A DNA stretch of 64,000 nt from Deltaproteobacteria bacterium (GTDB lineage Bacteria; Desulfobacterota; JAFDED01): contig JAFDED010000004.1 of NCBI GenBank assembly GCA_019310535.1, positions 27,699-91,698 of the forward strand, read 5' to 3'. The position numbers and the translations under genes are program-made. A model generated the notes under the pieces. It saw only the letters and a list, made by a program, of their open reading frames with translations, had not been told where the DNA came from and made no database searches. Below are positions 1 to 59,576 of this stretch, one piece after another. Positions within the stretch are counted from its first letter, which is position 1; every line of letters begins with the position of its first letter.

Positions 1-1
1 A

Positions 2-1005: not shown

Positions 1006-1283
1006 TGCTCATTTCACCATGTGAGGAGTCTGCCGGAAAACCTGATGTAATTTTAACTTTTGAGAATTCTGGTCTTCGAAAAATCGATGCCTTTTGATAT
1101 AGCGTTCCATACTTGTGCGCGCGGCAAGGAAAACTGTCCCGGACAGTACCGCACTATGCAATGTATTGATCGGGTACCGAGGGAAAGAAAACCGTGATCA
1201 CAAGTAATAGGAGTTCCTCTTTGGTAAAGGGAGATATAAACATGAGAATTTTGAGTCAAGGCTGTAACCCGGGATAAAAAGAT

Positions 1284-2480
1284 ATGGAAAAAACGGCAAT
1301 AATACTTGCTCCCGATGATAGAGGGCTTCAACCGGTATTCGGTATTCCCGCAGTTCGCAGGCTCGCTCTTCTCATCCTCCAGATGGGGCTTCGAGCTGTA
1401 CATATAGTCGGGCACGTCAATCCCCTTACCGCGATTCTTTCCGATCTTCTCCCACCGCAAGCATTCCATCAGTTGGACGATCCATCCTCGCTGGATCGAG
1501 TTGCGGAGGGGCTCGCTCTTCTTGATGAAGAGAGGGTTCTCGTGTTAAAAGCCAATCTTGTCATTGACCGGCATTCCCTTGCTCGATTGATTGAGGCCGG
1601 GAATAACTCGGGCCTTTATTATATGGAAGCCGTGGGGGAGAACGGCGCTGAAAGACTTTACGTGTGCAGCCCCGCCGATCTTGTCTCGGTCTTCCGCGGC
1701 CTATGGTCGCTTGATTCATCATATTTTACAATTCCAGACAAAGCGCAGCTCGTCCGGGGTGTTGCGGGACTTCCTTATGCTGCCGACAAGGGAGAGGAGC
1801 AGACAAGGTCTGCAGAGGCCAAGCTGATTGCGGCCCTTTCCTTCCAGACCGCAGCGGGTGATGGCTTTTTAGCCCGCCATTTTGATCGGCGAATCTCACG
1901 CGCTATCAGCGAGAGGCTTGCCCGAACCAGGGCGACACCGAATCAAATCACTCTCGGCGGCATGACAATAGGGCTTATCGGGGCATACCTTCTTTCATGG
2001 CCGGGCTACTGGTCCCACCTCATCGGCTCTTTGTTGTTTCTCTTTTGCGTCATTGTGGATGGTGTTGACGGTGAGGTGGCCCGTTTGACGGTACAAGAGA
2101 CCCGCTTCGGCCATTATCTGGATATAATTACAGACAATATAGTGCATGGTGCCATTTTCGCGGGGATAGCTTTTGGCCTTTACCATGACACAGGTGATGG
2201 AGGGTACCTGCGTGCTTTATGGTTTCTCATGGGCGGTTTTGGACTGAGTATTGTTGCGGTGTATCACTGTATTTTAAGGCGAAGCCCCGATGAGCTCAGA
2301 CGATCACCCATTACTATTCGGCTGATGACGCTCCTGGCCAGCCGCGACTTTGCCTATCTTGTTGTCGTCCTGGCAATTTTTAACAGACTCAGTTGGTTCC
2401 TAATCGGTGCAGCGGCAGGGTCTTATCTGTTTGCCGCTGCTTTATGGATTATAAGTATCCGTGAAAAAGCAAACGCGTGA
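1284..2480 (+). CDS. CDP-alcohol phosphotransferase with N-terminal degenerate nucleotidyltransferase-like domain
   Basis: TPNQIT and DGVDGEVAR...GHYLDIITD signature, followed by hydrophobic helices. Confidence 0.85.
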   Translation: MEKTAIILAPDDRGLQPVFGIPAVRRLALLILQMGLRAVHIVGHVNPLTAILSDLLPPQAFHQLDDPSSLDRVAEGLALLDEERVLVLKANLVIDRHSLARLIEAGNNSGLYYMEAVGENGAERLYVCSPADLVSVFRGLWSLDSSYFTIPDKAQLVRGVAGLPYAADKGEEQTRSAEAKLIAALSFQTAAGDGFLARHFDRRISRAISERLARTRATPNQITLGGMTIGLIGAYLLSWPGYWSHLIGSLLFLFCVIVDGVDGEVARLTVQETRFGHYLDIITDNIVHGAIFAGIAFGLYHDTGDGGYLRALWFLMGGFGLSIVAVYHCILRRSPDELRRSPITIRLMTLLASRDFAYLVVVLAIFNRLSWFLIGAAAGSYLFAAALWIISIREKANA

Positions 2481-2661
2481 CGATCGGCCAGTAACTTCCG
2501 CTCCATTCTCGCCACAGGCTGCGGAACACTGGAAAATGGCCGTAGCTGGGGGCAGGTCGCCATCCTCCCCTCAGATTACAAGAGAACACCTCGTGCGGCA
2601 TATAAGGCATATAATGCGTTCTTCGATTTGCAAACCGTAATCCCTGCGGCGATAGACTATC

Positions 2662-3879
2662 TCAATATTCAGTTAATTGGCAGCACCGATTGCAGATAGG
2701 AAGCAGTCCGCCCTGGTCCATGAGCATTCCGCGAAATTTCATAAAATTGGAACCGTGCCAGATCTCAAGAAAAGGGGTTTCATACACATTCCCCATGGAA
2801 AGAGGGGCATCTGTGAAAAGGTTGCACGGGTAAACATTGCCATCTGCGTCTATGGTGGGCTCATCAAAGGGCACCGGGCAGGGACCGCGACCAAGATCCC
2901 AGGAATAATCGGCATATAAGCGAGGAATCTGATGTAAGGGAATATGAGGGAGGGGTTCCAGTAAAAAGTCGAAAGCTTCCTTTTTAAGCGCAGAGACAAC
3001 TTTAACGATTCTGTAACCCTCCTCGACGAAATCTGAATAATCGTCCCTGAATCCTCCCGGTGACAAGACCCCTTTATCGACATCAAAGTATTTCTTTACC
3101 AGGTTAATGTACGCCTGCTCAGCTTGCTCAGGAATAAAAATCGGGGATAGTTTGATTTCCAAAACGTCTGCCAGTTCTTTTCCTCGTAAATCCCGGCAGA
3201 GATTTCTCAGGGCCATGGCACCGTTGTGCCTGTTCATCGTGAAGGCAATCTGTACCAGGGGAGTGTTTCTTCCCAGCCTTTTTTTCATCTCCCGAAGAGC
3301 ATACAGCCCTTTCATAGTTTTGTCATAGGCCCAGTTGCTACCTCTGATCTGGTTATGGGTATCTTTGTCGCCGTCTATTGAAACCGTTATTGATGTAACG
3401 CCTGATTTAACAACAGCACCGGCACAATGATCGAGCAACGTCCCGTTAGTAACAAATTTAACATAAAGGTTTTGTTTGCGCATCCTGTCCAGTAGCGTTT
3501 CAAATTGCGGATACAGTAAGGTCTCTCCACCTTCCATATCTATCAGTTTCAATCCCCTGGGTGTTAATTCATTCAGGATACGTTCTATGACTTCAATCTC
3601 AAGCAGGGTATTTCTTTTTGACGTATCGTACGCAAAATAGGCCCCGGTTTCTCCCCATTGGCCGCACATTTTGCACCTGAGGTTGCAATCATAGAGAATG
3701 CGAAGGTTGAGCTTGGTGGGAAAATAGGAACGGGGTGTAGGCATACGGCCGTGTTTCAAGATTTTCCTGATCCGGGTCGATTGTCTCCGCCCCAGCAGAT
3801 AAAAGTAGTACCCGGCGTTTACTCTTAGATTTTTCCACAGTCTCCAGTAAAGCTTCATTCGTGTTTTAGAAAGTACCAT
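2662..3879 (-). CDS. Radical SAM protein with SPASM/Twitch-type C-terminal domain
   Basis: CNLRCKMC, GGE, TNGTL, SIDG; C-terminal CPVP...DGNVYPC...CNRCC. Confidence 0.9.
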   Translation of the reverse strand: MVLSKTRMKLYWRLWKNLRVNAGYYFYLLGRRQSTRIRKILKHGRMPTPRSYFPTKLNLRILYDCNLRCKMCGQWGETGAYFAYDTSKRNTLLEIEVIERILNELTPRGLKLIDMEGGETLLYPQFETLLDRMRKQNLYVKFVTNGTLLDHCAGAVVKSGVTSITVSIDGDKDTHNQIRGSNWAYDKTMKGLYALREMKKRLGRNTPLVQIAFTMNRHNGAMALRNLCRDLRGKELADVLEIKLSPIFIPEQAEQAYINLVKKYFDVDKGVLSPGGFRDDYSDFVEEGYRIVKVVSALKKEAFDFLLEPLPHIPLHQIPRLYADYSWDLGRGPCPVPFDEPTIDADGNVYPCNLFTDAPLSMGNVYETPFLEIWHGSNFMKFRGMLMDQGGLLPICNRCCQLTEY

Positions 3880-3906
3880 TGATTTCCTTACGTTAGGAAA
3901 AATATT

Positions 3907-4521
3907 CTATGAGCTTTTTTCAATGGCCTGAAGCTGCAAGCGCATCTTTTGCAGGAGGATTTGATACGATTCCCGCTTGATCACTCTGCCGAAGGATTTC
4001 CGGTAGTTTTGGACAATGCTCACACCGTCGATCTTCACGTCGTGAACAAGCCACTCCTCATTCACCAGTGACAGGAAGTAATCCACTGGAATTTCCTCAT
4101 GTGTCCGGAGGATGGTGGTCTTTACCACAGCCCGGCCCTGATTGATATCTTCTTCAGTGTAGAGAATTGTTTCTTGCCTGAGAAAGTCCAAGACAAGCCT
4201 CGTATAGGAGTCCTGAAAAAGGTCCTGGAAAATGCCTTTGAATTCTGTCCGTTGAGCGCCATTGAGCTCCTGCCAATACCGGCCCAGAGACTGCTCAGCC
4301 ATTGCATCGAAATCAAAATTTTTGGCGATGACCTTTTTAATGGCAATCCTCCTTACCTCCCTGAATTCATGACCCTGGAGTTCAGGATCGCCCTGGATAG
4401 ACATCATATCTTCAAGCATTCGGCGTATTCCCTCTGTAGGCTCCTCTGCCTGACAGGGGGCATATAAATAGAAAAAGGAGAGGGCTGAGAGCATGGCCAT
4501 CGCGATAATTTTCTCTTTCAT
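3907..4521 (-). CDS. MlaC/Ttg2D (HpnM-like) periplasmic lipid-binding protein
   Basis: Signal peptide; FDFDAMAEQSLGRYW, IPVDY, W..HDVKIDGVSIVQNYRKSF. Confidence 0.85.
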   Translation of the reverse strand: MKEKIIAMAMLSALSFFYLYAPCQAEEPTEGIRRMLEDMMSIQGDPELQGHEFREVRRIAIKKVIAKNFDFDAMAEQSLGRYWQELNGAQRTEFKGIFQDLFQDSYTRLVLDFLRQETILYTEEDINQGRAVVKTTILRTHEEIPVDYFLSLVNEEWLVHDVKIDGVSIVQNYRKSFGRVIKRESYQILLQKMRLQLQAIEKSS

Positions 4522-4565
4522 GATATCTCCTCACGTGGGAGCTGATCTATTGTTAGAAACTCACT

Positions 4566-7337
4566 TCACCGGTTAATGTTTTGTTTCGGGGAAAGATGAG
4601 GTGTTGAATGGATTCGCCCCCTTTCCGAAAAATTTGTCATAAGCTGCATAAAGGCCGGGAGGAAAAGAATTGCTGCTGCCAATATGCACAGACTCCCCAC
4701 CATAGCAAGCAATCCCAGGCTATGGATGCCCTGGTGGTCTGATATGGCGAGGCTCCCGAAGCCCACAGTGGTTGTGAGCCCCGCGAGGATGACCCCCTTG
4801 GCGGTGCTGAATGGAAGCGTCACGTTTCCGGTGTCGCCGCCTTCGTGCTGCCGCCAGCGGTCTATGATGATGATGCCATATTCGACACCGGCGCCGACGA
4901 TGAGGGGCAGGAAGATGCTGTTGGCCAGGTTAAAGTCTACTCCAAGAAAACGCATCAATCCCATAGTCCACGCCGTTCCTACTACGAGCGGCATCATGAC
5001 CATGAAGGCATGGATCAGGTTACGGAAGGTGAGGAGCATCAGAGTGAAGATAAAAACCACCGCGTACATAGCCGCTTTAATAGCCGCATCGCGAAAGGCC
5101 TTGGTAAATACATAGAGAGTAACGGGATCACCGATGACGTCAGGGTCAACGGATCGAAGGTCACGCACGAACCTGCCGAGAAGCACCGGATCCCAGATAT
5201 CCTGAGACGGAAAAACCCGGATGAGATAATGACGGTCTTTGCTGACAAAACGCTGGAGCAGGGGTTTGGGTAAATCCTCAAGCTGCATGGGCGCGGCGTT
5301 CACATTGGTGCGGAGAATGTCAACCTTGTCGTTCAGGTCTTGGATCAGAGCACGTTCAAAGGCGTGCAATGCATCAGAAAGACGAGGTCTCTCCATGGAG
5401 TGAAAGCGGTGCCGGAGTTGATCAATGAGGTCTCGCACCTGGATCATTTGTGTTTCCACGGGCTTGCTGACACCCCACTGGGACTTACTGGAATCCAGCA
5501 TTTTAAAACGAATCCTGCCAAGGGTCTTATCTAATTCTGACAGATTGACAGAACCATCAGGACTTCGGGGTGAACCGACTCTTATCAGTAGCGGTTTCAT
5601 TTGCCGCAGGAAATCGATCTTGTCCTCCTGATCTTGAGGGAGTAAATTTATTATGCTTTGCACTTCCGAAACCGTTGGGAGAACCTCAAGGGCCGTCGTC
5701 TTTTTTTGAACTTCTTCAAGAGAGCGGGCCAGGACCGCTCCATACATGCTGGAACGCTCAGAACCTTCGAGAAGTTTTTTTTCCCAGATGACCGATTCCG
5801 CTCCTTTGGATTGAAGCCGGAGCATATTCAGGTCAAAGGTCACCTTTCCCGCTCCCCACAAAGACAAGCCCAATCCAATGGTGGCGGGAATCAAGATGGC
5901 AATGGCCCATCTGTTGTTTAGTTTCAACAGATGTTTCACCCGGGCGGGAGGCAAAAGGGTCCCTGTTCTGTGGCTTGACTTATCGAATATCAAGGCAAGA
6001 GCGGGCAGAACACAGAGCGTGGTCGCCGTGGTCATGAGCATTCCCATTGAGGTGATGATCCCTAATTCCACCAGGCCCCTGAAACCGGTGAGCACAAGGG
6101 GGAAGAAAGAAAGGGCTGCAGTCAAACCCGCGAGAAGAATCCCCGGACCGAGCTTGATCATGGTAGCCTGAATGGCCTCTCTCTTAGTAGCAGCCCGGAG
6201 CTGTTCCTCTTCTTGATAGCGGGCGAACCAGTGAATGCCGTAATCAATGCCCAATCCGAGAAGCAGAGGCGCAAAAGTTACTGATAGAATATTGAGATGA
6301 CCGATGAACAAGGTGGTCAGGCCGAAGGTCAATGATAGAGCGATAAGGAGCTCGATAATTTCCAACAGCGGTCGCCGGAACCCTCGCCAGAAGAGCACAA
6401 GAAGTCCCATGAGTCCGAATAGAGAGAGCACGGTGGCCAGGCTCATATCATGAAACGCCACGCCCATTTCATCCTCATTCAAGGCCTCTTGCCCGGTGAC
6501 GCCTACCTCTATATGGGGAAATCCGGCCTGCACCCGGGCAATCGCTTTCCTCAGGGCTTGCAGAGAATGCTGCGCATTGACAAAACTCTTGTCTATCTTT
6601 CTGGGCGTAACGAAAAGAAGAAGATACCGTTTATTTTCTGTCCAGAAATAACCCTCCTCGGAGTCATGGTCCCAGGATTTTTCAGTGAAAAACGATTCCC
6701 ACGGAGAAGTATAAGAAGCGTCTCCGTCCAACCAGTCTCTCAATTCCCGCAGGACACGAATGAGAAAACCAAGATCGAGAGGTTCTTTATCACTCTCTGA
6801 AGGGGTCTCATTGAGAAACCCGGTAAAAAGCTCTCCCACCATTTCGGAAGCCATCTCATGATTGACTCCCCTGAAAAAATCGGTCAAACCGGGCGACTGC
6901 ACCAGATTTTCAATAAAGCCGCGGTGTTCCTGGATGTTATCGCGAAGGGTTACGAGATCTTTTTTGTCCAGATACAGAAGCACCCAGGGCCTGAAAGGTT
7001 TTGGGTCCACGCGGTAAAAGACCTGAATGTAATTTTCGTCATCCTTCTCCAGTTGGGAGACCAAGGTGTGGAGAAATTTCAGGGAGCGTGAATTGTCCCG
7101 GTTTTCAATGGCGACCACAAAGGTGTCCAGATCCTCAAACTGATCCATCTGTTCCGACAGCCGTATCAGCCGATTGTGCGGAGAGATGAGATCTTTCTGG
7201 CTGGTGAGGAAATCCAGATTCCTTACGGTGTAAAAAATTGAAAGCGCGGCCAGTGTGAGCGCAATAAAAAGGGTAAGAAAGGGGTGCCCGGTTACAGCGA
7301 TGAAAATTTTTCGCAATACCCGTTGCAAGGCATTCAT
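4566..7337 (-). CDS. MMPL/RND lipid transporter, HpnN-like
   Basis: 923 aa with two MMPL repeats (GLGIDYGIH, GAGVEYGIII); located next to hopanoid genes. Confidence 0.85.
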   Translation of the reverse strand: MNALQRVLRKIFIAVTGHPFLTLFIALTLAALSIFYTVRNLDFLTSQKDLISPHNRLIRLSEQMDQFEDLDTFVVAIENRDNSRSLKFLHTLVSQLEKDDENYIQVFYRVDPKPFRPWVLLYLDKKDLVTLRDNIQEHRGFIENLVQSPGLTDFFRGVNHEMASEMVGELFTGFLNETPSESDKEPLDLGFLIRVLRELRDWLDGDASYTSPWESFFTEKSWDHDSEEGYFWTENKRYLLLFVTPRKIDKSFVNAQHSLQALRKAIARVQAGFPHIEVGVTGQEALNEDEMGVAFHDMSLATVLSLFGLMGLLVLFWRGFRRPLLEIIELLIALSLTFGLTTLFIGHLNILSVTFAPLLLGLGIDYGIHWFARYQEEEQLRAATKREAIQATMIKLGPGILLAGLTAALSFFPLVLTGFRGLVELGIITSMGMLMTTATTLCVLPALALIFDKSSHRTGTLLPPARVKHLLKLNNRWAIAILIPATIGLGLSLWGAGKVTFDLNMLRLQSKGAESVIWEKKLLEGSERSSMYGAVLARSLEEVQKKTTALEVLPTVSEVQSIINLLPQDQEDKIDFLRQMKPLLIRVGSPRSPDGSVNLSELDKTLGRIRFKMLDSSKSQWGVSKPVETQMIQVRDLIDQLRHRFHSMERPRLSDALHAFERALIQDLNDKVDILRTNVNAAPMQLEDLPKPLLQRFVSKDRHYLIRVFPSQDIWDPVLLGRFVRDLRSVDPDVIGDPVTLYVFTKAFRDAAIKAAMYAVVFIFTLMLLTFRNLIHAFMVMMPLVVGTAWTMGLMRFLGVDFNLANSIFLPLIVGAGVEYGIIIIDRWRQHEGGDTGNVTLPFSTAKGVILAGLTTTVGFGSLAISDHQGIHSLGLLAMVGSLCILAAAILFLPAFMQLMTNFSERGRIHSTPHLSPKQNINR

Positions 7338-8764
7338 TTTTTCCGGTCCTCTTGCCAGTCCTTCGCGCCCGCAACAAATTCCAACTTGGCCAGGGACATG
7401 TTGTAATTGAACAGCGCCTCAAGATATTTGCTCTGATTGTGGCCGTACTTTTCTATGGCCACAAGCATATTTTCGGCTGTTCCAACGCCCATATCGAAAT
7501 CGGCAAGGGCTGTGATTACCCATTTTCTGGAGGAGGAGACGGCCTTGCGATAAGCGTTTACGGCCTTTTTCCATTCCAGTACCTCTTGGTAAGATTTAAC
7601 TGTCTGGATACGGATGTTCATCTCAGCAGAAGCTTTTGTATAAAGAAGTTTGCTGTACTCCGCCGATACTTTATCCACCTTGGCTCTGCCGATCCCAAAA
7701 TCGAACTCCCATTTGACTCCGGCCACTACTCCGGCGTAGGCGTGATTGAAATCGTCAGGGATATAGGGGTTATCCAGGATATCCCGGCCCGGAGCCGTTG
7801 CAAAGGAACCCTCCAACGCGACAAAAAAGGAAGGATACCTGTCGCTCTGAGCCGCTTGCACCTGGAACTTTTGGGCTTCCAGTGCAGCGTTAAGCTGCTT
7901 GAATTCCGGGCGATTTGCAAATGCCTTTTTAATATAACTTTCCATCTCATCGAGGTCTTCATCCTTCATCGGGAGAGCTTCTTCGGCAATATCAAACTCC
8001 TTGCCGGGGGGCAGGTGGATTAGGGATTTCAAGGCAAAGTAAGCAACCTCCACTCCCTTTTGTGCCTCAGCTCGGGACCTGATGGAATCGGCACGGAAGG
8101 CATCGATCCTGTAAAGATCGCTTTCACTGACATTGGGGGAATCTAAATCCAAGAGGCGAATGATCCGGCGTCTGGCATCGTCAAAAAAATCCCCCGCTTC
8201 ATCGGCCGCATCGATTCCTTCACGGGCAAGAATCAAAGCGTAATAGAGTTGCTTGACCCTGAGGGCAATCCGGCTTTTTTTCTCTACAAGGCCGAATTCC
8301 TTAGCCCTGACTCCATCGCTGGCCGCTTTTCTTCGGTTAGCGAGCTTGCCAAAGGTATAAAGGGGTTGAGTTATGGTAAAGTCCAGCCTGCCAAAAATAC
8401 CTATATTGGAAAGGCTCGTGCCGGGGGAGGGGTCAAAGATTTTGTTATCGCGAATCACCGGTTCCCTGGCATCATCGATGGGGCCGACAACGGCTGTGCT
8501 CTCAAGCTGCGGATAATATGCGGCTTTCACCTGTTCAAGATCGCTTCGGGCTGCCGCTATTTCACTTCGGCTCTCACCAATCTCAGGGCTCTTGGCAATG
8601 GCCATATGGATCAACTGCGGCAAACTCAGGACAAGCTTCTCTTTTATCCGGGGTTCCCCCCAGGCCGGCCCGTGGAGGATAAAAACCGGGCAGAGGCTCA
8701 TAATTAACGTTAAAATAAAGAATCGGGCGGAAAATCGAAAACTGTGTATTATAGGCATGTCCAA
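7334..8764 (-). CDS. TolC-family outer-membrane channel
   Basis: Signal peptide, TQPLYTFGK, VKQLYY, NRPEF, YNMSLAKLE outer-membrane efflux repeats. Confidence 0.85.
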   Translation of the reverse strand: MDMPIIHSFRFSARFFILTLIMSLCPVFILHGPAWGEPRIKEKLVLSLPQLIHMAIAKSPEIGESRSEIAAARSDLEQVKAAYYPQLESTAVVGPIDDAREPVIRDNKIFDPSPGTSLSNIGIFGRLDFTITQPLYTFGKLANRRKAASDGVRAKEFGLVEKKSRIALRVKQLYYALILAREGIDAADEAGDFFDDARRRIIRLLDLDSPNVSESDLYRIDAFRADSIRSRAEAQKGVEVAYFALKSLIHLPPGKEFDIAEEALPMKDEDLDEMESYIKKAFANRPEFKQLNAALEAQKFQVQAAQSDRYPSFFVALEGSFATAPGRDILDNPYIPDDFNHAYAGVVAGVKWEFDFGIGRAKVDKVSAEYSKLLYTKASAEMNIRIQTVKSYQEVLEWKKAVNAYRKAVSSSRKWVITALADFDMGVGTAENMLVAIEKYGHNQSKYLEALFNYNMSLAKLEFVAGAKDWQEDRKK

Positions 8765-8788
8765 CGTTCCCTCCCTGTACTGATCGAA

Positions 8789-9802: not shown

Positions 9803-11082
9803 CAGGTCCCTACGGCCTGTTGCCCGAGTGTCTTTTTCATTGTTCTGTTGTATTGAATCAACCGAACGCCGTGGATGACGGCGGTAAGAGCGGCCCAGAC
9901 AGCCACTACGGCGAAAGTGTAAAACGGATAACCCAGCGAAAAACCAAAAATAAACATAATACCGTAGACGTTGCGCCGTCCGGCGATGCGCCGGAATGTC
10001 GCATCGAAAGGGCTGAATAGATCAATGCTTTTGCTATACCATCTGCCCGCCAGAGTATAAACTATATTATCCGCTGTATCTGAGAGAATCAGCAAGCCAG
10101 CCAGGAACGCGGGCAAATTATTTGGGGCTGTGTCCCGTAATCCCACTGCCAGGGCCACGTACCAGCTATTCTCATAGATATAGTCGATAACGTCTTCATA
10201 CTTCCCGAATTTAGTATAGTGAAGCTTGGTGCGTGCCAGCTTGCCATCCACGCCATCCAGGATTTCCACAAGAAAGGTGCATAAGGCTCCCGCCACAAAA
10301 TAGCCGTGCCAGAACAGCCATGCCACCACCACCCCAACAGCCGCGCCGATCAGGGTAATCATGTTGGGAGTAACGGGTGTGTTGCAAAGGAGCAGGGTCA
10401 GCGCATTTTCAATGGGTGGATCGATGAATTGAGCGGGGAGATCCATAACCTTTTTTTGCTGACTGCGGATCAAGAGTCGGGTCGCTTCCCGGGCATCATC
10501 CTTGGAACGCACTTCCATGAAATAAGGGGTCAAAGGTCCTCTGATCTCCGGACAGAAAGGATTAATGTCGCCGGGGAAAAGGAATCCGGAATGACTGATC
10601 AGGGCGGCGCTTCCTTGTTTGGCCCAGATATGAAGATCCTCTATTTTCAGGAACCCCGCCCGAATTACCCGCCTTTCCCTGTCTACGGGGTCGATATAGG
10701 CAAAAGTGGTTCCTGATGCGGATGCCAGAGTGTATAAGAGCCGGGGGTCAATCAGGTGTGCCGTGTCAATGTATAAAAAACGCTGCTCAAGATCGGTAAT
10801 GGAGAGAATTGTACCCGGGATATTTACCTTTGCCCTCACCTGCTGTAATTCGAGGGTCCCCTGCCATTTCGTGAGCTCTATGGGGATACTGTCGGTGCTC
10901 AAAAGCAAAACGACCTTTTTTATCCCTGCCTCTTTGAGGTGGAAAAGCGTCCTTGCGGTGAGCGTAATACCGCCCACTTTCTCCCACGCTCCGGGATGGC
11001 AAGCATTCAGAATGGCCAGAGACGGAGGCGTGTTTTGGGTGGCTTCCGGAGGATGAGATACCTGTATGGATTCTGAAAGCAT
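9802..11082 (-). CDS. Second CDP-alcohol phosphotransferase with degenerate N-terminal NTP-transferase-like domain
   Basis: TPNMIT, DGVDGKLAR...FGKYEDVID; C-terminal TM helices. Confidence 0.85.
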   Translation of the reverse strand: MLSESIQVSHPPEATQNTPPSLAILNACHPGAWEKVGGITLTARTLFHLKEAGIKKVVLLLSTDSIPIELTKWQGTLELQQVRAKVNIPGTILSITDLEQRFLYIDTAHLIDPRLLYTLASASGTTFAYIDPVDRERRVIRAGFLKIEDLHIWAKQGSAALISHSGFLFPGDINPFCPEIRGPLTPYFMEVRSKDDAREATRLLIRSQQKKVMDLPAQFIDPPIENALTLLLCNTPVTPNMITLIGAAVGVVVAWLFWHGYFVAGALCTFLVEILDGVDGKLARTKLHYTKFGKYEDVIDYIYENSWYVALAVGLRDTAPNNLPAFLAGLLILSDTADNIVYTLAGRWYSKSIDLFSPFDATFRRIAGRRNVYGIMFIFGFSLGYPFYTFAVVAVWAALTAVIHGVRLIQYNRTMKKTLGQQAVGT

Positions 11083-11090
11083 GCTGAGTC

Positions 11091-12140
11091 CTACAGAATC
11101 GGATTATGGACCGGGATAAAACACGACCCTTCTCGATGAGATTTATAGGCGAGATAGGTAAGTTGAGCACAATACTTGCATTCCATAAAATTGGCGCCGC
11201 GAGCATCGACTTCCAGTATTTCCCGATGAAAATCCTCCATTACGGGTTTCATCCAATCCAAATGATGGGAACCTCCGGAAAGGGCTTCAGCGAAATCATA
11301 CCGGGTGGGCGGCAAACCATCGGCGTGCAAAATCAGGTGATCATCATTGATAACAATCGTTCCCTGTTCTCCCGTGATGGTTCCATAATTTTGACGATAC
11401 GAGGCCCGCCAGGTGAGTTGCAGCCGCGCCTCTGCATCGCGGAATCGCAGCACCACATCCACCGTCTCCTCCAAACCGGGGCCATTAACTTGTGAGTACT
11501 CCATCCTGGCCGAGATAGACAAGGGCGACTCATTGATGACGGAGAGAATCAGGTAGAAATGGTGCCAGCCATGATCCAGGAGAATGCCGCCGCCGGCAAT
11601 TTCTGCGCACTTCCGCCAGTTAGTGGCGCCTCCACCCGAATTGGAAGGGCGCAGCACCGTGAGTAAGATGGATCGCACGGTGCCGATTCTGTTTTCGCGG
11701 ATGAGTTCGACCGCCTTGGACCAAAGAGGTGCATGTTTCCAGTTGTTTACGGTAAAGATGACCCGCTGAAACTCATCGGCGGCCTCCTGGATCTTATGCA
11801 AACTTTCTAAAGAAGTTACAAGAGGTTTTTCACAAAAAACGTGCAGTCCTGACCTGCACGATTCGAGCATGAGATCCGCATGAAAACAGGGAGGAGTGCA
11901 GATATCCACGAAATCCAGATCGTTCTCGGCAACCAGGGGTTCTATTCCAGAATAAATCCGCGCTTCCGGTAGCACATCCATTGCTACCCTGGCCCGTTCG
12001 GGAAGGGGTTCCACGACGGCATCAATTCTAAAATGGTTGCTTTTCAGCCATAAGGGCAAATGAGCATGAATTGCCACATTGCCAAAACCGATAATGGCTC
12101 CCCGCAATGGGGGACTATGCTTGGGATTATCCCCGGTCAT
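11091..12140 (-). CDS. Gfo/Idh/MocA-family NAD(P) oxidoreductase
   Basis: IIGFGNVA, ICTPP..H, CEKP, GGGILLDHGWH; start moved to ATG at 12140 (AAAGGA RBS). Confidence 0.9.
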   Translation of the reverse strand: MTGDNPKHSPPLRGAIIGFGNVAIHAHLPLWLKSNHFRIDAVVEPLPERARVAMDVLPEARIYSGIEPLVAENDLDFVDICTPPCFHADLMLESCRSGLHVFCEKPLVTSLESLHKIQEAADEFQRVIFTVNNWKHAPLWSKAVELIRENRIGTVRSILLTVLRPSNSGGGATNWRKCAEIAGGGILLDHGWHHFYLILSVINESPLSISARMEYSQVNGPGLEETVDVVLRFRDAEARLQLTWRASYRQNYGTITGEQGTIVINDDHLILHADGLPPTRYDFAEALSGGSHHLDWMKPVMEDFHREILEVDARGANFMECKYCAQLTYLAYKSHREGSCFIPVHNPIL

Positions 12141-12153
12141 TGAGAGTTTTCCT

Positions 12154-13500
12154 TTATCTTTTATAAGGGATATGTTTGGCCAGGAATGCAAAGACGTCAT
12201 CAAGAATTTGTAATCCTACGTCCGCTTCTTCCTTGCTGAGACTCAAGGGAGGATTGACGCGGAAGTTGGGTTTGTAATTCATGCTCATCATGCCTCTTTT
12301 GAGCGTCTCCAGGAAAAGCTGTCTCGTAACGGCTTTATCAAGAGGTTCCTTGGTTTTCCTGTCCTTTACCAGTTCTACGCCGATAAGGAGACCACAACCA
12401 CGGACGTCTCCGATAAACTCATATTTTTCCTGAATCCGGCGTATTCCATTGAGCAGATAATCACCCACTGTGCGCGAATTTTCCACCAGGGATTCCTCCA
12501 GGATCGTTTGAATGGTCGCCAGAGCTGCGGTGCTGGCCAGGGGATTTCCCCCGTAACTGCTTGAGGATGCACTGGGTTTTGAAAAGGGCTTGCTCTTCGT
12601 GATCTCCTCAGTAGAGACGAGACCGCTGATGGGAAACCCGTTTCCCATTCCTTTCCCGATGGTCATGATATCGGGCCTGATGCCTGTATGATTGGAGCCG
12701 AACATCATTCCTGTGCGGCCAAATCCGGTGATCATTTCATCGGCAATAAGAAGAGCGTCATTTTCATGTGCGATCTCAAGCAGACCAGGAAGAAATTCCG
12801 GGGGTGGAATCACGTTGCCCGCCGTGCCCTGCATGGTTTCAACAATGATCGCGGCGAGGCCCCCTGCTGTATTGTTCTCAATAACTTTGCGGATGAATTC
12901 CAGACAGAAAAGGCCGCACCGAGGATATTCCATTTTAAATGGGCAGCGGTAACAATCAGCATAAGGTGCCAGATGAAGACCAGGATGAAGCACTTGCCAG
13001 TGTTTTTTAAACGGATCACCAATCAGGCCCAGGACTCCGCTGGTTTTGCCGTGAAAACCGCCCCAAAAACCGAGGATTTCAAATTTCTTGGTGTACGATT
13101 TGGCTAAACGAATGGCAGCCTCCACCGCTTCTGCACCGCCGCTGTAAAGTTGGATTTTGTTCAGGCCCGGAGGTGTCAGAGAAGCGATCAACCGCATCAA
13201 AGCCAACCGGTTTTCCGTAGTGAAGCTGCCCACGGTAATTTTTTCAAGCTGCTCTTTAATGGCCGCGACGTATTTTTGGTGTGAGTGTCCCAGGCTACAA
13301 ACCGCCACACCAGCCATAAAATCCAGGTAACGCCTGCCATCCGCGTCTACAAGCCAGCAGCCGCTTCCTTCCTTGATGGCCAATTGAGACAGTTGGGCCA
13401 CTTCCTGAAGGCCGGGCGACATGTATTGCTGTTCTTGAAGGTACAGTTGTGAAGACATCGTTTCAGCGATGTCTTTAATAGACACAGCTTGATATTCCAT
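12154..13500 (-). CDS. Class III PLP aminotransferase (same class as HpnO)
   Basis: SGGAEAVE, GFHGKT, IADEMITGFGRTG, PDIMTIGKG, YGGNP. Confidence 0.9.
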   Translation of the reverse strand: MEYQAVSIKDIAETMSSQLYLQEQQYMSPGLQEVAQLSQLAIKEGSGCWLVDADGRRYLDFMAGVAVCSLGHSHQKYVAAIKEQLEKITVGSFTTENRLALMRLIASLTPPGLNKIQLYSGGAEAVEAAIRLAKSYTKKFEILGFWGGFHGKTSGVLGLIGDPFKKHWQVLHPGLHLAPYADCYRCPFKMEYPRCGLFCLEFIRKVIENNTAGGLAAIIVETMQGTAGNVIPPPEFLPGLLEIAHENDALLIADEMITGFGRTGMMFGSNHTGIRPDIMTIGKGMGNGFPISGLVSTEEITKSKPFSKPSASSSSYGGNPLASTAALATIQTILEESLVENSRTVGDYLLNGIRRIQEKYEFIGDVRGCGLLIGVELVKDRKTKEPLDKAVTRQLFLETLKRGMMSMNYKPNFRVNPPLSLSKEEADVGLQILDDVFAFLAKHIPYKR

Positions 13501-14317
13501 TAAATTCTCCTTGGCAGATTCGCGTTATGTAGCTCGCGATGCTTTTGGCTGCAAACTGGCGACATAGCGAAAAGCTGGGCCAATCATTGAGATCGATCAA
13601 CACCACGTCACCTCCTCGGGCAAGGATTGCATCACCCCCGTAAATTTCAAGGCCCACCGCCTCAGCAGACCGGCTGGCTATTGCGGCGAGTTGTTTCATC
13701 CGCGAGGTGACCTCTTCGCCGCTGGATGCCAAAAATGCGCTGAAATAATCACCGGCACCCACACCGTAAAACTTGATCACCCGACCCTCCACATGTTCCT
13801 GGACAAGAATCTCCTCAATCTTCTGTCCGCGGAAATGATTGAGTGCTCTGTTCAGTTCTTCGCTCGATGCTATCTTCACGACATCATCTGACCGTATAGC
13901 ATGAACATCCCCTCGCTTCAACCAGTACCGGGTGGACGACCCGAAAGAGATTTTCCGCTCCACTTCTTCGAGGGGGACAATCTGGCTGGGAGGTATGGGG
14001 AAGCCACCTTTTGCAAGCAGATGAATCAGAGGCTTGCGATAACAGTTGCGAACCGAGCCGACGGAGTTGATGATTCTGGTTCCGCTCTTGTGCCAATTTT
14101 CTATGATATTGAGTGCCCGATTAGATTGTACCATGATCAATGCGCAGGAAGGTCGCATGGAAAGAATATCAAGAGCTTCGGCCTGCACGGTAGAGACCTC
14201 ATACCCCAGACGGGACAGCTCAAGCAGGGTGGCGTCCAGAATAGCGGCGTCTTCACGGACTTTTCCCGGTGAAAAGATTGGCTCCCGATACACGCCGAGC
14301 ACCGTCATGCAGTGCAT
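13475..14317 (-). CDS. ATP-grasp-like protein of unknown function
   Basis: WLKRGDVHA, VQEHVEG, KFYGV, IYGGD, IDLNDWPSF. Confidence 0.7.
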   Translation of the reverse strand: MHCMTVLGVYREPIFSPGKVREDAAILDATLLELSRLGYEVSTVQAEALDILSMRPSCALIMVQSNRALNIIENWHKSGTRIINSVGSVRNCYRKPLIHLLAKGGFPIPPSQIVPLEEVERKISFGSSTRYWLKRGDVHAIRSDDVVKIASSEELNRALNHFRGQKIEEILVQEHVEGRVIKFYGVGAGDYFSAFLASSGEEVTSRMKQLAAIASRSAEAVGLEIYGGDAILARGGDVVLIDLNDWPSFSLCRQFAAKSIASYITRICQGEFNGISSCVY

Positions 14318-15021
14318 TTCTTCTCAGTCTCCCGCAAATAGGTTTCAGCCTTCTCTATATCTTCGCGATAATCCACATCGACAGTCTTGGAGACCGGGAT
14401 ACCATACAGTGAATACCCGCTTTCCATCAAAAAGCCCAAAAACTGGCGAAGAGCGTTCATTGCTTTTGCCTGCGCGGCTTCTATCATAGCAAAGATGTCC
14501 GGCTTAAAATAGTAAAAACCGGCAGTCACATACCGGCTCGGGCGGGCGGAATCTCCCATGGCAAGTATTTTAAGACGAGTATCCACTCTCACCCACAGTG
14601 GCTTTTCATCATCGATGAACCGGGTGAGAGCCAAAACCCCCTGCGCGTTATTCAGGGTTTGAGCTTTTGTAAGAAACTTTTCCAGGCTCTCGAATCCAAA
14701 TACCGAATCGACGGTAAACAAGACAAAGGGTTCATCGCACAAAAACGGAGCCAGCGAAAACAGGCTTTCCATGGAACTGGGTGTAGTCTTCACAACGAGT
14801 TCCAAATGGACCGGCCAAGAGCCCGAACGCACGTAATCGGCGACAGCAGGGTTCAAATCGTTCACAATGCAGGCGATGGAAGTTGCTTTGACTTTCGCGG
14901 CGGCACGAATGACCCTGGCAATCAAAGGCTCGCCGCCAACAGGAATTAAGGGCTTTGGGATCGAGATGCCTCCCCGCGCGAGACGTTCTCCTCTGCCGGC
15001 AGCGATGATTCCCGCCTTCAT
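14305..15021 (-). CDS. Nucleotidyltransferase (NTP_transferase family)
   Basis: IIAAGRGERL...PKPLIPVGG; DVDYREDIEKAE. Confidence 0.9.
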   Translation of the reverse strand: MKAGIIAAGRGERLARGGISIPKPLIPVGGEPLIARVIRAAAKVKATSIACIVNDLNPAVADYVRSGSWPVHLELVVKTTPSSMESLFSLAPFLCDEPFVLFTVDSVFGFESLEKFLTKAQTLNNAQGVLALTRFIDDEKPLWVRVDTRLKILAMGDSARPSRYVTAGFYYFKPDIFAMIEAAQAKAMNALRQFLGFLMESGYSLYGIPVSKTVDVDYREDIEKAETYLRETEKKCTA

Positions 15022-15773
15022 GAGATCAACGCCTCCAGCTCAGACAGGCTTGATATCCAGGCATCCACGGGGCCGGCATTCTCAGGCATCCGAGGATTGG
15101 GTCCCTTCATCCAGATGGTTTTCATTCCAAGTTCTCGGGCCGGAATCATGTCCCTCTCATAAGAATCCCCGATAAAAACAACCTGTTCTGGGGACAAATT
15201 AAGCTTGCCCAGAGCGGTCAAGAATATCTCAGGGTGAGGTTTGCTGATCCCGGCCTGAGCGGAGTCCAGAATTACATCCAGTGATTCCGCCAATCCCGCC
15301 TCTTCACACAGTATGGAGACATTGCCGTAAAAATTGGATACCAAGCCCAGCCGATACCGGTTTTTCACGCGGCCGAGTAAACGCGCGCTTTGCAGGAGAA
15401 ACCGCTCCGATTTGTTACAAAATGCTTCGACCAATTTTTTCTCTTTCCCGTGATCCTCCAGGTTCAAGGCCGCAAACTGCAAATGCACATGGTGTTTCAT
15501 CAATGGGCGGAGGCCGAGTGAAACCACCAGTGAATCATTGCAGCACAGGGCGTCAGCATGATAAAAAGCGCGCTTGATTTCGGAACGGGGGACGTCCAAT
15601 CCGAAGTGTTCGTAGAGAGCGTAAAACCGATCCAGCCAGTGTTCCCCGTCGGAATCCAGGGTGCCTCCGAAATCGAAAAGAATTGCCTTGCATTCACGGA
15701 ATTTCGAGGCATTAATATGGCCGGCACCGGAAAAAACACCGCCGGGACCGCCGCCATCAGCTAACGAACACAC
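15018..15773 (-). CDS. HAD-superfamily hydrolase/phosphatase
   Basis: FDFGGTLD, VSN, KPHPEIF, IGDSYERD motifs I-IV. Confidence 0.9.
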   Translation of the reverse strand: MCSLADGGGPGGVFSGAGHINASKFRECKAILFDFGGTLDSDGEHWLDRFYALYEHFGLDVPRSEIKRAFYHADALCCNDSLVVSLGLRPLMKHHVHLQFAALNLEDHGKEKKLVEAFCNKSERFLLQSARLLGRVKNRYRLGLVSNFYGNVSILCEEAGLAESLDVILDSAQAGISKPHPEIFLTALGKLNLSPEQVVFIGDSYERDMIPARELGMKTIWMKGPNPRMPENAGPVDAWISSLSELEALIS

Positions 15774-15806
15774 GTAAGATCACTCCCTTTTGCCGCTGCA
15801 AGCCGG

Positions 15807-16919
15807 TCAAACCTTGCCCGTCGGGTATGTTTCTTTTACCATATCCGCTTCGGAATCGGAAGCGGGTTCGGCACCACTCATAATCAGATCCGGGGCCATG
15901 GGACCATCGGTGCCGGGACCTCGCAGATACACGTATAGTGCCTTGAGCGGATGTGCCAGAGCGTCGTTTACCGCCGTCGCCTCAAAACCGCTGTGAAGCA
16001 TGCAGTTGGCGCATTTGGGGTTGCGCCCCGTGCCGTAGCTCTCCCAGTCTGTCTCCTCCATAAGCGCCTTGTAGCTGGGGGCATAGCCCTCATCCACCAG
16101 AAGATAACAGGGCTTTTGCCAGCCAAAGACGTTCCGCGTGGGGGTACCCCAGGGAGTGCACTGGTAGGTCTGGTTGCCTGCAAGAAAATCAAGAAACAGA
16201 CTCGACTGATTAAATCTCCACTTACGCCCTCTGCCCAGCTTGAAGATATCCCGAAAGAGCTGTTTACTGTGTGTGCGCTTCAGGAACATGTCTTTCTGTA
16301 GGGCGTGCGCATAGCTGTATCCGGGAGATACGGTGATGCCTTCCACGCCCATGCCCATGACGCAATCGAAGAGTTCGGCGGCTTCTGCGGCGGTCATGCC
16401 ATCATACAGAGTGCAGTTAACGGTAACCCGAAAGCCCCTCGCGTGTGCAAGCTTTATTGCCTCCACCGCCGAATCATAGACTCCTTGCCGACAGGCCAGA
16501 GCATCATGCCGTTCCCGACAGCCGTCAAGGTGAATGGAGATGTTCAGAAAGGGCGATGGGGTGTAGTCCTTGATGTGCGTTTTCAGCAGCAGGCCATTAG
16601 TGCAAAGATAGATGAACTTCTCGCGCCTCACCAGGCCGGCCGCAATCTGCGGCATGTCCCTGTGGATCAGCGGCTCGCCCCCGGCGATCGATACGATAGG
16701 TGCACCGCATTCATCCACTGCAGAGAAACATTCCTCCACACTGAGACGTCGATCGAGGATCTCCTCAGGATAGTCGATCTTGCCACAACCGGCACAGGCG
16801 AGATTGCATTGGAACAGGGGCTCCAGCATCAACACCAGTGGATAGCGCCGCCTCCCGCGAAGCTTCTGGCTGATTACATATCGCCCGAGACGATATTGCT
16901 GAATGAAAGGCACACTCAT
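15807..16919 (-). CDS. hpnH: Adenosylhopane synthase (hopanoid radical SAM)
   Basis: RYPLVLMLEPLFQCNLACAGCGKIDYP, CTPWG, GWQKPCYL, CANCMLHSGFE; start at ATG 16919 with AGGAG RBS. Confidence 0.93.
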   Translation of the reverse strand: MSVPFIQQYRLGRYVISQKLRGRRRYPLVLMLEPLFQCNLACAGCGKIDYPEEILDRRLSVEECFSAVDECGAPIVSIAGGEPLIHRDMPQIAAGLVRREKFIYLCTNGLLLKTHIKDYTPSPFLNISIHLDGCRERHDALACRQGVYDSAVEAIKLAHARGFRVTVNCTLYDGMTAAEAAELFDCVMGMGVEGITVSPGYSYAHALQKDMFLKRTHSKQLFRDIFKLGRGRKWRFNQSSLFLDFLAGNQTYQCTPWGTPTRNVFGWQKPCYLLVDEGYAPSYKALMEETDWESYGTGRNPKCANCMLHSGFEATAVNDALAHPLKALYVYLRGPGTDGPMAPDLIMSGAEPASDSEADMVKETYPTGKV

Positions 16920-16938
16920 TGCGCGCTCCTGAGGGAGA

Positions 16939-17853
16939 TCATAGTGATTCAGGCAGCCGGACGTGCATGTGTTCCCGCTCAGCGTCCATCTCTCTGACCT
17001 CACCGGCACCGAAGGCAAGCAACCTCTCTAAAACCCTTTGCACCATCTCTTCCGGCGCCGAGGCCCCGGCCGTGATCCCTACCACGCAGTCTTCCCAGAA
17101 CCAGGCCCTGTTTATATCCTCCGCATCCTCGATCAAATAGGACGGTACACCGCTGTGCTCGCCCACCTCGCGCAGACGATTGGAATTGGAACTGTTGCGG
17201 CCGCCCACTACCAGCAGCACGTCTATGTCCCTGGTCAGCCGGCGGACAGCGTTCTGTCGACTCTGGGTGGCATAACAGATATTACTCAAGTCCGGCCCCT
17301 GAATAAGGAAACGCTTCTTCAACGCCTCGATCACCCCCAGGGTATCGTCAATGCTCAGGGTGGTCTGGGTAACATAGGCAAGCCGATCAGGACGACTGAC
17401 CCGCAATGTGGCAACATCGGCGATACTGGACACCACATACACCGGACCTTCCACACGGCCCCGGGTGCCCTCCACCTCCGGATGGCCGGGGTGGCCGATG
17501 ATGACGACCTCAAAGCCCTTGCGGCTGAAGTGCTGGGCCTGCAGATGCACCCTGGTGACCAGCGGACAGGTGGCGTCAATGATCCGCAGGTTCCTTTTTT
17601 CCGCCTCCTTGACCACCGCTGTCGGTACACCGTGGGCACTGAAAATGGACACCGCACCGGGAGGCACTTCATCGAGGGATTCAACAAATAAAGCTCCCTT
17701 GACCTTCAAATCTTCGACCACGTGGCGGTTGTGTACGATCTCATGCAGGACATAGATAGGCGAGTCATAGGTCTCCAGTGTACGTTCCACAATTTTTATC
17801 GCGCGGATCACTCCTGCACAAAACCCGCGCGGCTGAGCCAGTATCACCTGCAT
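16939..17853 (-). CDS. ispH: 4-hydroxy-3-methylbut-2-enyl diphosphate reductase
   Basis: PRGFCAGV, HEIVHN, SAHG, DATCPLV, QTTLS, ICYATQ, SSNS, TAGASAP. Confidence 0.97.
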   Translation of the reverse strand: MQVILAQPRGFCAGVIRAIKIVERTLETYDSPIYVLHEIVHNRHVVEDLKVKGALFVESLDEVPPGAVSIFSAHGVPTAVVKEAEKRNLRIIDATCPLVTRVHLQAQHFSRKGFEVVIIGHPGHPEVEGTRGRVEGPVYVVSSIADVATLRVSRPDRLAYVTQTTLSIDDTLGVIEALKKRFLIQGPDLSNICYATQSRQNAVRRLTRDIDVLLVVGGRNSSNSNRLREVGEHSGVPSYLIEDAEDINRAWFWEDCVVGITAGASAPEEMVQRVLERLLAFGAGEVREMDAEREHMHVRLPESL

Positions 17854-32742: not shown

Positions 32743-32765
32743 GCGGTGCAACTGCGGGGACGCAA

Positions 32766-34466: not shown

Positions 34467-34467
34467 G

Positions 34468-59560: not shown

Positions 59561-59576
59561 GCAGAGGAGATTCTTC

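Follow-up and report, generated by a model that had tools for sequence, protein, structure and literature searches.

The closest described relative of the gene system analyzed here is a putative and unverified "alternative inositol lipid cluster" of Bacteroides vulgatus and Prevotella (Heaver et al., 2022; PMC9246714). In the sections of that study that treat it, the cluster groups genes for an NTP-transferase, a CDP-alcohol phosphotransferase and a HAD hydrolase by the gene for myo-inositol-phosphate synthase (MIPS), often together with an LPG-synthase-like gene, and a Kennedy-type route via CDP-inositol is proposed for it; Bacteroides and Prevotella species that have only this cluster make inositol sphingolipid (Heaver et al., 2022). 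The transport part of the system resembles HpnN and HpnM of the hopanoid (hpn) gene clusters described in the preprint by Lawrence et al. (10.1101/2025.07.29.667474). We found elements of both in a 64,000-nucleotide stretch of DNA (hereafter, the window) from a Deltaproteobacteria bacterium (GenBank assembly GCA_019310535.1; contig JAFDED010000004.1, positions 27,699 to 91,698 of the forward strand). The best explanation for this locus is a single operon that joins the start of C35-hopanoid synthesis (ispH and hpnH) to a head-group pathway and to a dedicated path leading from the inner membrane to the outer one. The head-group pathway, referred to here as the module, is linked with hopanoids at the genome level in four or more phyla, and the polyol that it handles is most likely myo-inositol.

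We annotated the open reading frames (ORFs) of the window with Pfam (E ≤ 0.001) and with NCBIfam at its curated cut-offs. The assembly that provided the window, a part of contig C17, is 4.8 Mb in size, distributed over 191 contigs and 95% complete. Thirteen reading frames are closely packed on the minus strand between positions 2662 and 17853, their coordinates overlapping by 1–80 nucleotides (nt) or leaving gaps of 8–44 nt, and a second CDP-alcohol phosphotransferase gene on the plus strand converges on them, ending 181 nt from the last operon gene, which encodes a radical SAM enzyme. These searches recovered, each in its place, all 14 genes of a preliminary description of this DNA (13 co-oriented genes plus the convergent transferase). 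The operon opens with ispH (HMBPP reductase; 16939–17853, minus strand, as are all operon genes below), which matched PF02401 (9e-93) and NF002188 (447.8 bits; cut-off, 420) and is single-copy, with one tblastn match in the genome. It is followed by hpnH (15807–17018), which encodes the radical SAM enzyme adenosylhopane synthase (TIGR03470, 532 bits against a cut-off of 225; PF04055 and DUF3463, PF11946). The ORF matches the family only from residue 34 onward, so the TTG start listed for hpnH probably lies too far upstream. Only 33 nt separate hpnH from the HAD gene, the first gene of the module. A promoter and terminator scan of positions 1–19000 returned the same counts as shuffled sequence and was uninformative on the operon; a look-up of sequencing runs, RNA included, listed none for positions 8000–17900. 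The gene order recurs in dozens of genomes of several phyla and the arrangement is, therefore, not due to chance.

Myo-inositol is the most likely polyol because the MIPS gene adjoins the module in relatives, the CDP-alcohol phosphotransferases resemble bifunctional IPCT/DIPPS enzymes and the core of the module matches the alternative inositol lipid cluster. To describe gene neighborhoods, we deduplicated the loci and fetched 20 kb for each, in two sets for the Desulfobacterota (n = 22 and n = 29) and one each for the Elusimicrobiota (n = 17) and Prevotella (n = 4). The MIPS gene was adjacent in 13 of 22 and 6 of 29 loci of the Desulfobacterota, 9 of 17 of the Elusimicrobiota and 1 of the 4 from Prevotella; a count over the listed rows of further loci, from many phyla, gave 34 of 79. 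Presence of MIPS anywhere in the genome is common (25 of 31 Desulfobacterota genomes with the module, 212 of 370 without it, 237 of 401 overall) and, therefore, discriminates weakly. These scores used PF01658, as PF07994 at E ≤ 1e-20 misses short-type MIPS, including that of this genome, which is encoded close to the end of contig C16. The genome search advised in the preliminary description thus located an inositol-phosphate synthase. The Prevotella loci have the order NTP-transferase, ATP-grasp, CDP-alcohol transferase, HAD and DUF5686/CarbopepD_reg (for example, L027), and the genes they share with the cluster of Heaver et al. (2022) are homologous and in the same neighborhoods. Our genome has all the components of that cluster, three of them in the window and MIPS on C16. 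The description of the cluster names three genes and no ATP-grasp (Heaver et al., 2022), whereas we found an ATP-grasp gene in 4 of 4 Prevotella loci. In addition, the window encodes an aminotransferase, a dehydrogenase, a second transferase with an E-x3-D motif, a radical SAM/SPASM enzyme, an export set (RND, MlaC-like and OEP) and hopanoid genes, and its transferases are of a long, two-domain type unlike those of the Bacteroidota cluster. The preliminary description had proposed that a polyol-phosphate is converted to an NDP derivative, oxidized, transaminated, joined to a lipid by CDP-alcohol transfer and exported; MIPS adjacency and the IPCT/DIPPS-like transferases support this outline and give the polyol its probable name.

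Hopanoid synthesis itself is encoded elsewhere in the genome. The preliminary description had pointed out that shc and the usual tailoring genes were missing, which is true of the window but not of the genome. A whole-genome search located shc (850 bits) on contig C136 with hpnG as its neighbor and, next to these two, hpnA, hpnI, hpnJ and an FPP synthase gene, all above curated cut-offs (hpnK and hpnO were not part of the search). Lack of a squalene-hopene cyclase, the result singled out beforehand as fatal to a hopanoid link, is thus not what the genome presents. Given shc, hpnG, hpnA, hpnI and hpnJ, the organism should make C35 hopanoids, including those of the glucosamine/cyclitol-ether branch. 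Between hpnA and hpnG on C136 we also noted a 191-residue ORF (L040:5854–6429, minus strand) whose match to HpnN is confined to the ~90 C-terminal residues (TIGR03480 positions 769–858, 1e-31) and which is possibly a remnant or small paralogue of an hpnN gene from the canonical hpn cluster. The only full-length HpnN-like gene that the genome search identified is the one in the window.

The activation steps would fall to an ATP-grasp-like protein and an NTP-transferase. The former (13475–14317; 280 residues) had no Pfam hit at E ≤ 0.001 and has no named family. We placed it in the ATP-grasp superfamily with a profile of 55 homologues that matched the PDB entries 7DRM (1e-7) and RimK (7e-5); matches to ITPK1 (1e-4 to 1e-3) covered only ~50 C-terminal residues. 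Its similarity to inositol 1,3,4-trisphosphate 5/6-kinase (PF05770) stayed below threshold, with weak matches in 16 of the 55 members and a best E of 0.0034. Among 37 long homologues the fusion partner was NTP_transferase in 29, HAD in 2, CDP-OH_P_transf in 2, Aminotran_3 in 1 (P0001) and a PAS-histidine kinase in 2, the remaining protein having no Pfam domain. The ESM Atlas contains the same kinds of fusion, and in one cluster joined to NTP_transferase 51% of the members carry Ins134_P3_kin. The ATP-grasp gene is also present where the aminotransferase is absent, as in Prevotella and loci L015–L020. Because of these fusions to NTP-transferases (29/37) and its occurrence without the aminotransferase, the protein is more likely an (amino)inositol kinase that supplies the NTP-transferase than an acylating ligase. 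The same two observations make the acylation step considered in the preliminary description less likely. A kinase followed by a nucleotidylyltransferase is a classic pair for salvage and activation, found side by side or fused in LicA/LicC, HldE and the Bacteroides FKP. Unlike in those pairs, the candidate kinase here has an ATP-grasp fold and comes from an unnamed family, its role being read from context; one fused homologue is annotated at its source as "choline kinase." The NTP-transferase (14305–15021; PF00483/PF12804, NF041135 weakly at 7e-14), a sugar/polyol-phosphate nucleotidylyltransferase by family, keeps intact G-x-G-x-R-L and PK motifs and may make CDP-(amino)inositol. Two side observations concern the ATP-grasp family. 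The two fusions to PAS and histidine-kinase domains (P0008 and P0009; 691–692 residues) are unexpected regulatory architectures. In addition, locus L049 (G082:C8:106487–126486) has two ATP-grasp copies 6 kb apart, one among HAD and NTP-transferase genes and the other among aminotransferase, dehydrogenase and transferase genes, and a third copy is on another contig.

The enzymes that may prepare the cyclitol belong to broad families. The HAD-IA (REG-2-like) protein (15018–15773; PF00702/PF13419) has motifs II–IV, and its motif I is D-x-G-G-T (D-[FYL]-G-G-T conserved in 67 homologues). Residues D34, G36, G37, T38, D40, S146, N147, K178, D203 and D208 are at least 90% conserved in the same set. 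We tentatively regard the protein as an inositol-phosphate phosphatase or phosphotransferase. The Gfo/Idh/MocA dehydrogenase (11091–12203; PF01408/PF22725) has iolG as its best NCBIfam match (TIGR04380, 73.5 bits against a cut-off of 355), which identifies it as a family member only, and matched in the PDB glucose-fructose oxidoreductase (3.5e-23) and inositol 2-dehydrogenase (6.5e-13). It could oxidize inositol to inosose. The class III (omega-type) aminotransferase (12154–13500; PF00202, 8e-99), which could aminate the oxidized cyclitol, is the most conserved module protein (50–84% identity in relatives). Both the dehydrogenase and the aminotransferase are generic within their families.

The last operon gene encodes a radical SAM/SPASM enzyme (2662–3879; PF04055 and PF13186), which matched anSME (2e-8) and the C-terminal, auxiliary-cluster domain of BtrN (1.6e-5) in the PDB. 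Of 16 loci with homologues of at least 47% identity, 10 have module genes beside it (Desulfobacterota, Nitrospirota and Methylomirabilota), and one has hpnJ/hpnI. The gene belongs, therefore, to the module system. None of 63 more distant homologues had module genes nearby, an ESM Atlas search with the protein returned generic radical SAM/SPASM clusters only, and a search beside the gene for a small precursor-peptide gene found only short, unconvincing ORFs. By analogy with BtrN or anSME, the enzyme may oxidize the cyclitol. Aminocyclitol pathways for aminoglycosides and rhizopine use an inositol dehydrogenase, an aminotransferase and the radical SAM dehydrogenase BtrN. The window would share with them the logic of a dehydrogenase followed by a transaminase acting on a cyclitol, and a SPASM/twitch-type radical SAM enzyme with a BtrN-like C-terminal domain. 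It differs from them in that the aminotransferase is of class III rather than of the DegT/StsC type and what is made is apparently the head group of a lipid rather than a secreted glycoside.

Transfer of the activated head group would involve the two CDP-alcohol phosphotransferases, one in the operon (9802–11082; PF01066, 4MND at 5.9e-9) and the other convergent with it (1284–2480, plus strand; PF01066 at 6.5e-13, NF041135 at 4.5e-23). Both have an N-terminal, nucleotidyltransferase-like domain of ~200 residues followed by the CDP-alcohol transferase domain. A profile of 32 transferase sequences matched the Archaeoglobus fulgidus IPCT/DIPPS structure 4MND over its full length (1.3e-34) and AF2299 (1.6e-41), and the nearest characterized enzymes are IPCT/DIPPS and PIP synthases. 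The IPCT/DIPPS of hyperthermophiles shares the two-domain architecture, is the best solved relative and works in a MIPS-dependent pathway. In contrast to it, the window proteins and the family consensus lack the N-terminal G-x-G-x-R and Lys motifs, a separate NTP-transferase is encoded, the NF041135 scores (63 and 82 bits) are far below the equivalog cut-off of 580, and the context is membrane-lipid export rather than solute synthesis. An apparently intact bifunctional homologue of 440 residues is encoded separately on contig C97 (L168:6388–7710, plus strand). This protein has the G-x-G-x-R-L, Lys and canonical transferase motifs, matched NF041135 over its full length (289 bits, also below the cut-off) and may provide the genome with a second CDP-inositol route. 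Its gene adjoins MFS and TRAP transporter genes.

The two window transferases differ in their catalytic motif. The convergent protein carries the canonical CDP-alcohol phosphotransferase signature (D-G-x-D-G-x2-A-R-x8-G-x3-D-x3-D), and its type is found in nearly all versions of the module, the motif being canonical in every locus listed for it. In the operon protein G-x2-E-x3-D replaces G-x3-D-x3-D, so that the acidic pair is one residue nearer the conserved Gly; A3 shows no variation at E296 and D300. Across 80 related loci, the 102 transferase segments matched by the CDPOH1 query had G-x2-E-x3-D in 54 cases, G-x3-E-x3-D in 25 and the canonical motif in 23. We had considered the in-operon transferase degenerate and dropped this idea, as the wider survey revealed a conserved Glu-x3-Asp variant. 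The E-x3-D transferase is nearly always paired with an HpnL-like gene.

The remaining operon genes could take the product across the envelope. They encode an LPG_synthase_TM/HpnL-like membrane protein (8789–9802; PF03706, 2.6e-26), flippase-like by name only; an OEP (TolC-like) outer-membrane efflux protein (7334–8764; PF02321 in two stretches, with a hydrophobic N-terminal segment at residues 11–35 as signal sequence); an MMPL/HpnN-like RND protein of the inner membrane (4566–7337); and an MlaC/HpnM-like periplasmic lipid carrier with a signal sequence (3907–4521; PF05494, 1.2e-35). The best solved relative of the pump is HpnN of B. multivorans (5KHN, 3.8e-53), followed by MmpL4 (1.5e-13). 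With hpn clusters (Lawrence et al., preprint), the operon shares, as far as the preprint describes them, a genuine hpnH with ispH, an HpnN-related pump and HpnM-like and HpnL-like proteins. It differs in the presence of an OEP/TolC-like partner, in the lack of an MlaA-like HpnS in the operon and in scores below the curated cut-offs for HpnN (TIGR03480, 532.9 bits full-length against 751.85; NF052374, 338 against 1100), HpnM (TIGR03481, 72 against 160) and HpnL (TIGR03476, 114 against 196), although the Pfam thresholds for MlaC and LPG_synthase_TM were passed. The TolC-like, HpnM-like and HpnN-like genes stay beside the module across rearrangements. Furthermore, loci of Gemmatimonadota and Latescibacterota have two transferase genes followed by the TolC-like and HpnM-like genes. 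This four-gene unit (canonical transferase, E-x3-D transferase, TolC-like and MlaC/HpnM-like) was seen in L290–L311, L314, L316, L318–L320 and L326, and in these loci, from Gemmatimonadota, Latescibacterota and other metagenome-assembled genomes, the 10 kb examined yielded no gene for a HAD, NTP-transferase or ATP-grasp protein. This position of the export genes behind the transferases suggests that they carry what the transferases make. The window pump probably carries hopanoids too, because it is the sole HpnN of the genome.

Taken together, we infer the following order of reactions. Starting from myo-inositol-3-phosphate made by MIPS, the HAD protein might free inositol, which the Gfo/Idh/MocA enzyme would oxidize and the class III aminotransferase would aminate. 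The ATP-grasp protein, as a putative kinase, would then re-phosphorylate the aminated cyclitol and the NTP-transferase would form CDP-(amino)inositol. At the cytoplasmic face, the two IPCT/DIPPS-like transferases would put phospho-(amino)inositol on the alcohol of a membrane lipid, the HpnL-like protein would flip the product, and the HpnN-type RND pump, the MlaC-like HpnM and the TolC-like protein would take it to the outer membrane; the radical SAM/SPASM enzyme could further modify the cyclitol or the lipid. Our tentative choice of acceptor is an ordinary membrane lipid, of the diacylglycerol or ceramide type, as is necessarily the case in the Bacteroidota that lack shc. The product would be a phospholipid or sphingolipid with an (amino)inositol head group, expressed and exported together with hopanoids, and the tie to hopanoids would reflect co-regulation, co-export and a joint function in the outer membrane. 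We rank this acceptor slightly above a bacteriohopanepolyol.

The distribution of the system bears directly on this choice. One peptide pattern confirmed at least 599 stretches of the module family, and we found the system in Desulfobacterota, Elusimicrobiota, Nitrospirota, Methylomirabilota, Binatota, Myxococcota, Acidobacteriota, Verrucomicrobiota, Gemmatimonadota and Bacteroidota. It is common in the last phylum (for example, Sphingobacterium, Dyadobacter and Bacteroides), and the Ignavibacteria loci also have the aminotransferase and dehydrogenase. SHC is missing or exceedingly uncommon in Bacteroidota, as stated in the preprint by Lawrence et al., and we found shc in 0 of the 3 Prevotella carrier genomes tested. 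The full system, with both transferases and the HpnL-, TolC- and HpnM-like proteins, is also widespread at a distance from hpn genes: none had an hpn gene nearby among 17 Elusimicrobiota loci or, from a reading of the listed rows, among 63 more distant loci, and at strict identity thresholds 9 of 22 and 3 of 29 Desulfobacterota loci had one within 20 kb. The preliminary description had held that independence of the module from hpn genes would speak against a hopanoid product. Such independence is, in part, what the abundance in Bacteroidota and the three shc-less Prevotella genomes indicate, but the module tracks shc in Desulfobacterota and Elusimicrobiota.

This tracking is evidence for a different acceptor, the C35 bacteriohopanepolyol itself. 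Phospho-(amino)inositol would then be placed, for example, on the C-35 hydroxyl of bacteriohopanetetrol, and the HpnL-, HpnN-, HpnM- and TolC-like proteins would flip and export the resulting lipid. Scoring module presence by the ATP-grasp gene in 401 Desulfobacterota genomes, we found 31 carriers and 69 genomes with shc, which was present in 26 of the 31 carriers and 43 of the 370 others; among 186 Elusimicrobiota genomes, 16 had the ATP-grasp gene, 12 had shc and 11 had both, leaving shc in 1 of 170 others. Both sets of counts ignore kinship among genomes, and as related genomes are not independent, odds ratios and Fisher values overstate the association. Of the five Desulfobacterota carriers without shc, two have hpnH and the other three are only 62–85% complete; the five Elusimicrobiota carriers without shc and hpnH form one clade, whose loci have no transferase or MIPS gene beside the module. 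The sole congener of the window genome (G001) has neither the module nor shc. All carriers tested in two further phyla had shc (two Nitrospirota and one Methylomirabilota genome). The transferase is, moreover, the part that differs between groups, being of the short type in Bacteroidota and of the long, IPCT/DIPPS-like type in the phyla associated with shc. Against these observations stand the loci far from hpn genes, the shc-less Prevotella genomes, the Ignavibacteria loci with the amino steps, and the fact that no phosphorus-containing hopanepolyol was found in the open-access literature searched. We, therefore, regard a hopanoid acceptor as possible but somewhat doubtful.

Several findings nevertheless weigh against an ordinary membrane lipid as the acceptor and against the enzyme roles proposed above. 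Hopanoid genes lie on either side of the module in close relatives, which favors a hopanoid substrate over mere co-function. Loci L004, L007 and L025 have hpnG-shc, hpnI and hpnJ, then MIPS, HAD, NTP-transferase, ATP-grasp, aminotransferase, Gfo/Idh/MocA, transferase, HpnL, TolC, HpnN and HpnM; the contig of L004 continues with the radical SAM gene, the canonical transferase and ispH-hpnH (L089), and L005, L009, L013, L014 and L022 are variants of this layout, including hpnA plus hpnH. Similarly, all 12 Desulfobacterota families with the module lie among the 26 families with shc, of 111 in total, which also favors a hopanoid substrate. As to the enzymes, the HAD protein lacks the D-x-D-x-T signature (nucleophile plus an Asp+2 acid/base) of HAD phosphatases, and the missing Asp+2 makes the step that would free inositol doubtful. 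To our knowledge, class III aminotransferases are not the type that aminates inososes. The subthreshold Pfam matches of the 55 ATP-grasp members are split among ATPgrasp_ST (22), RimK (18) and Ins134_P3_kin (16), with no decisive likeness to a kinase. The C97 enzyme could already make simple inositol-phosphate products. Finally, we found no assay of any module enzyme in the literature, and the Bacteroides/Prevotella cluster is itself presented as putative (Heaver et al., 2022).

The hopanoid alternative can be drawn more sharply, to the point that the operon would make the first bacteriohopanepolyol containing both P and N. A new ATP-grasp cyclitol kinase and an IPCT-like nucleotidylyltransferase would lead to CDP-inosamine or CDP-inositol, the long IPCT/DIPPS-like transferases would place the head group on the C-35 hydroxyl of bacteriohopanetetrol, the E-x3-D subfamily that pairs with HpnL would be the transferase specific to hopanoids, the BtrN-like radical SAM/SPASM enzyme would oxidize the head group, and the HpnN, HpnM and TolC-like proteins would export the lipid. 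So detailed a proposal is, in our judgment, unlikely in its entirety. If true, zwitterionic "hopanoid phospholipids" would be expected in Desulfobacterota, Elusimicrobiota, Nitrospirota and Methylomirabilota of soil and peat.

We also considered that ispH-hpnH, the genes for the head group and those for transport are no more than neighbors that share no function, with transport serving hopanoids only. No strict hpn gene lies within 20 kb in 39 of the 51 Desulfobacterota loci, and MIPS is as common as noted above. The reading frames, however, overlap or nearly abut through all 13 genes, the linkage recurs in differing gene orders, and module and shc co-occur per genome even when physically unlinked, all of which makes chance proximity quite improbable.

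A soluble product is less probable again. The NTP-transferase, the DIPPS-like transferase and the HAD protein could make a compatible solute similar to the di-inositol-phosphate (DIP) of hyperthermophiles, or an aminated analogue, and no lipid. The DIP pathway requires MIPS, a cytidylyltransferase, DIPPS and a phosphatase, and the best family matches of the transferases are indeed IPCT/DIPPS (NF041135 and 4MND), albeit at 63–82 bits, far under the DIPPS cut-off. The HAD protein lacks the acid/base residue of a phosphatase, and the module is constantly found with lipid-handling genes (HpnL-like, HpnN-type RND, MlaC-like and OEP). A tie between hopanoid producers and tolerance of high osmolarity, drawn in the preprint by Lawrence et al., would suit a solute, yet the Bacteroides and Prevotella species with only the alternative cluster make inositol sphingolipid (Heaver et al., 2022).

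Least credible is a reversal of roles like that of the CDP-diacylglycerol route to phosphatidylinositol, in which the NTP-transferase would turn the phosphoribosylhopane made by HpnG into CDP-ribosylhopane for coupling to inositol phosphate by a PIP-synthase-like transferase, the HAD protein removing the remaining phosphate: both transferases also match PIP and archaetidylinositol-phosphate synthases (1e-11 to 1e-16) and NTP_transferase enzymes use sugar-1-phosphates, but the prevalent fusion of NTP-transferase to ATP-grasp implies that its substrate should be the ATP-grasp product, and the module works in Prevotella without shc. Phosphoribohopane is, moreover, a theoretical product of HpnG that has never been observed, according to the account given in PMC13459092.

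The open-access literature that we searched contained nothing that joins hopanoid genes to MIPS, CDP-inositol, phosphoinositol or CDP-alcohol transferases, and no biosynthesis of inosamine-type or aminoinositol lipid head groups. The words inositol, CDP and ATP-grasp have 0 occurrences each in the main text of the preprint by Lawrence et al., and the hopanoid coverage of a 2026 review of lipid radical SAM enzymes is of HpnH, HpnJ, HpnP and HpnR only. A very widespread system, for which we found no experimental characterization in the literature, extends the sole published hint, the putative cluster of gut Bacteroidota, by an ATP-grasp step that had been overlooked, a branch with amino chemistry, a second subfamily of transferases and a route for export. 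An ordinary membrane-lipid acceptor would mean a hard-wired partnership of hopanoids and inositol-type lipids in the outer membrane, parallel to the pairing of sterols and sphingolipids. A hopanoid acceptor would mean a new lipid class, a composite hopanoid that is a possible biomarker of anaerobic soil bacteria. Both outcomes are testable in a cultured carrier, Desulfoferrobacter suflitae DRH4 (L170; NZ_JAIBKA010000015.1). In this isolate the module adjoins an hpnJ homologue, the ATP-grasp proteins share 57% identity and the order is HpnJ, HAD, NTP-transferase, ATP-grasp, aminotransferase, Gfo/Idh/MocA, HpnL, TolC and HpnM, with the canonical transferase convergent.

The rest of the window encodes ordinary catabolism: thiolase, a GntR regulator, acyl-CoA dehydrogenase, TRAP/TTT transporters, hydantoinase A/B, an OYE-type reductase, PrpD, CoA-transferase, a TPP enzyme and aldehyde:ferredoxin oxidoreductase. 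The hydantoinase/oxoprolinase B and A pair (32721–36585, plus strand) and the aldehyde:ferredoxin oxidoreductase (59523–61418, plus strand) lie among transporter and CoA-transferase genes. A 692-residue protein (55836–57914, minus strand), unrelated to the operon, combines a PMT_2 domain (dolichyl-phosphate-mannose-type glycosyltransferase) with many TPR repeats that follow it.

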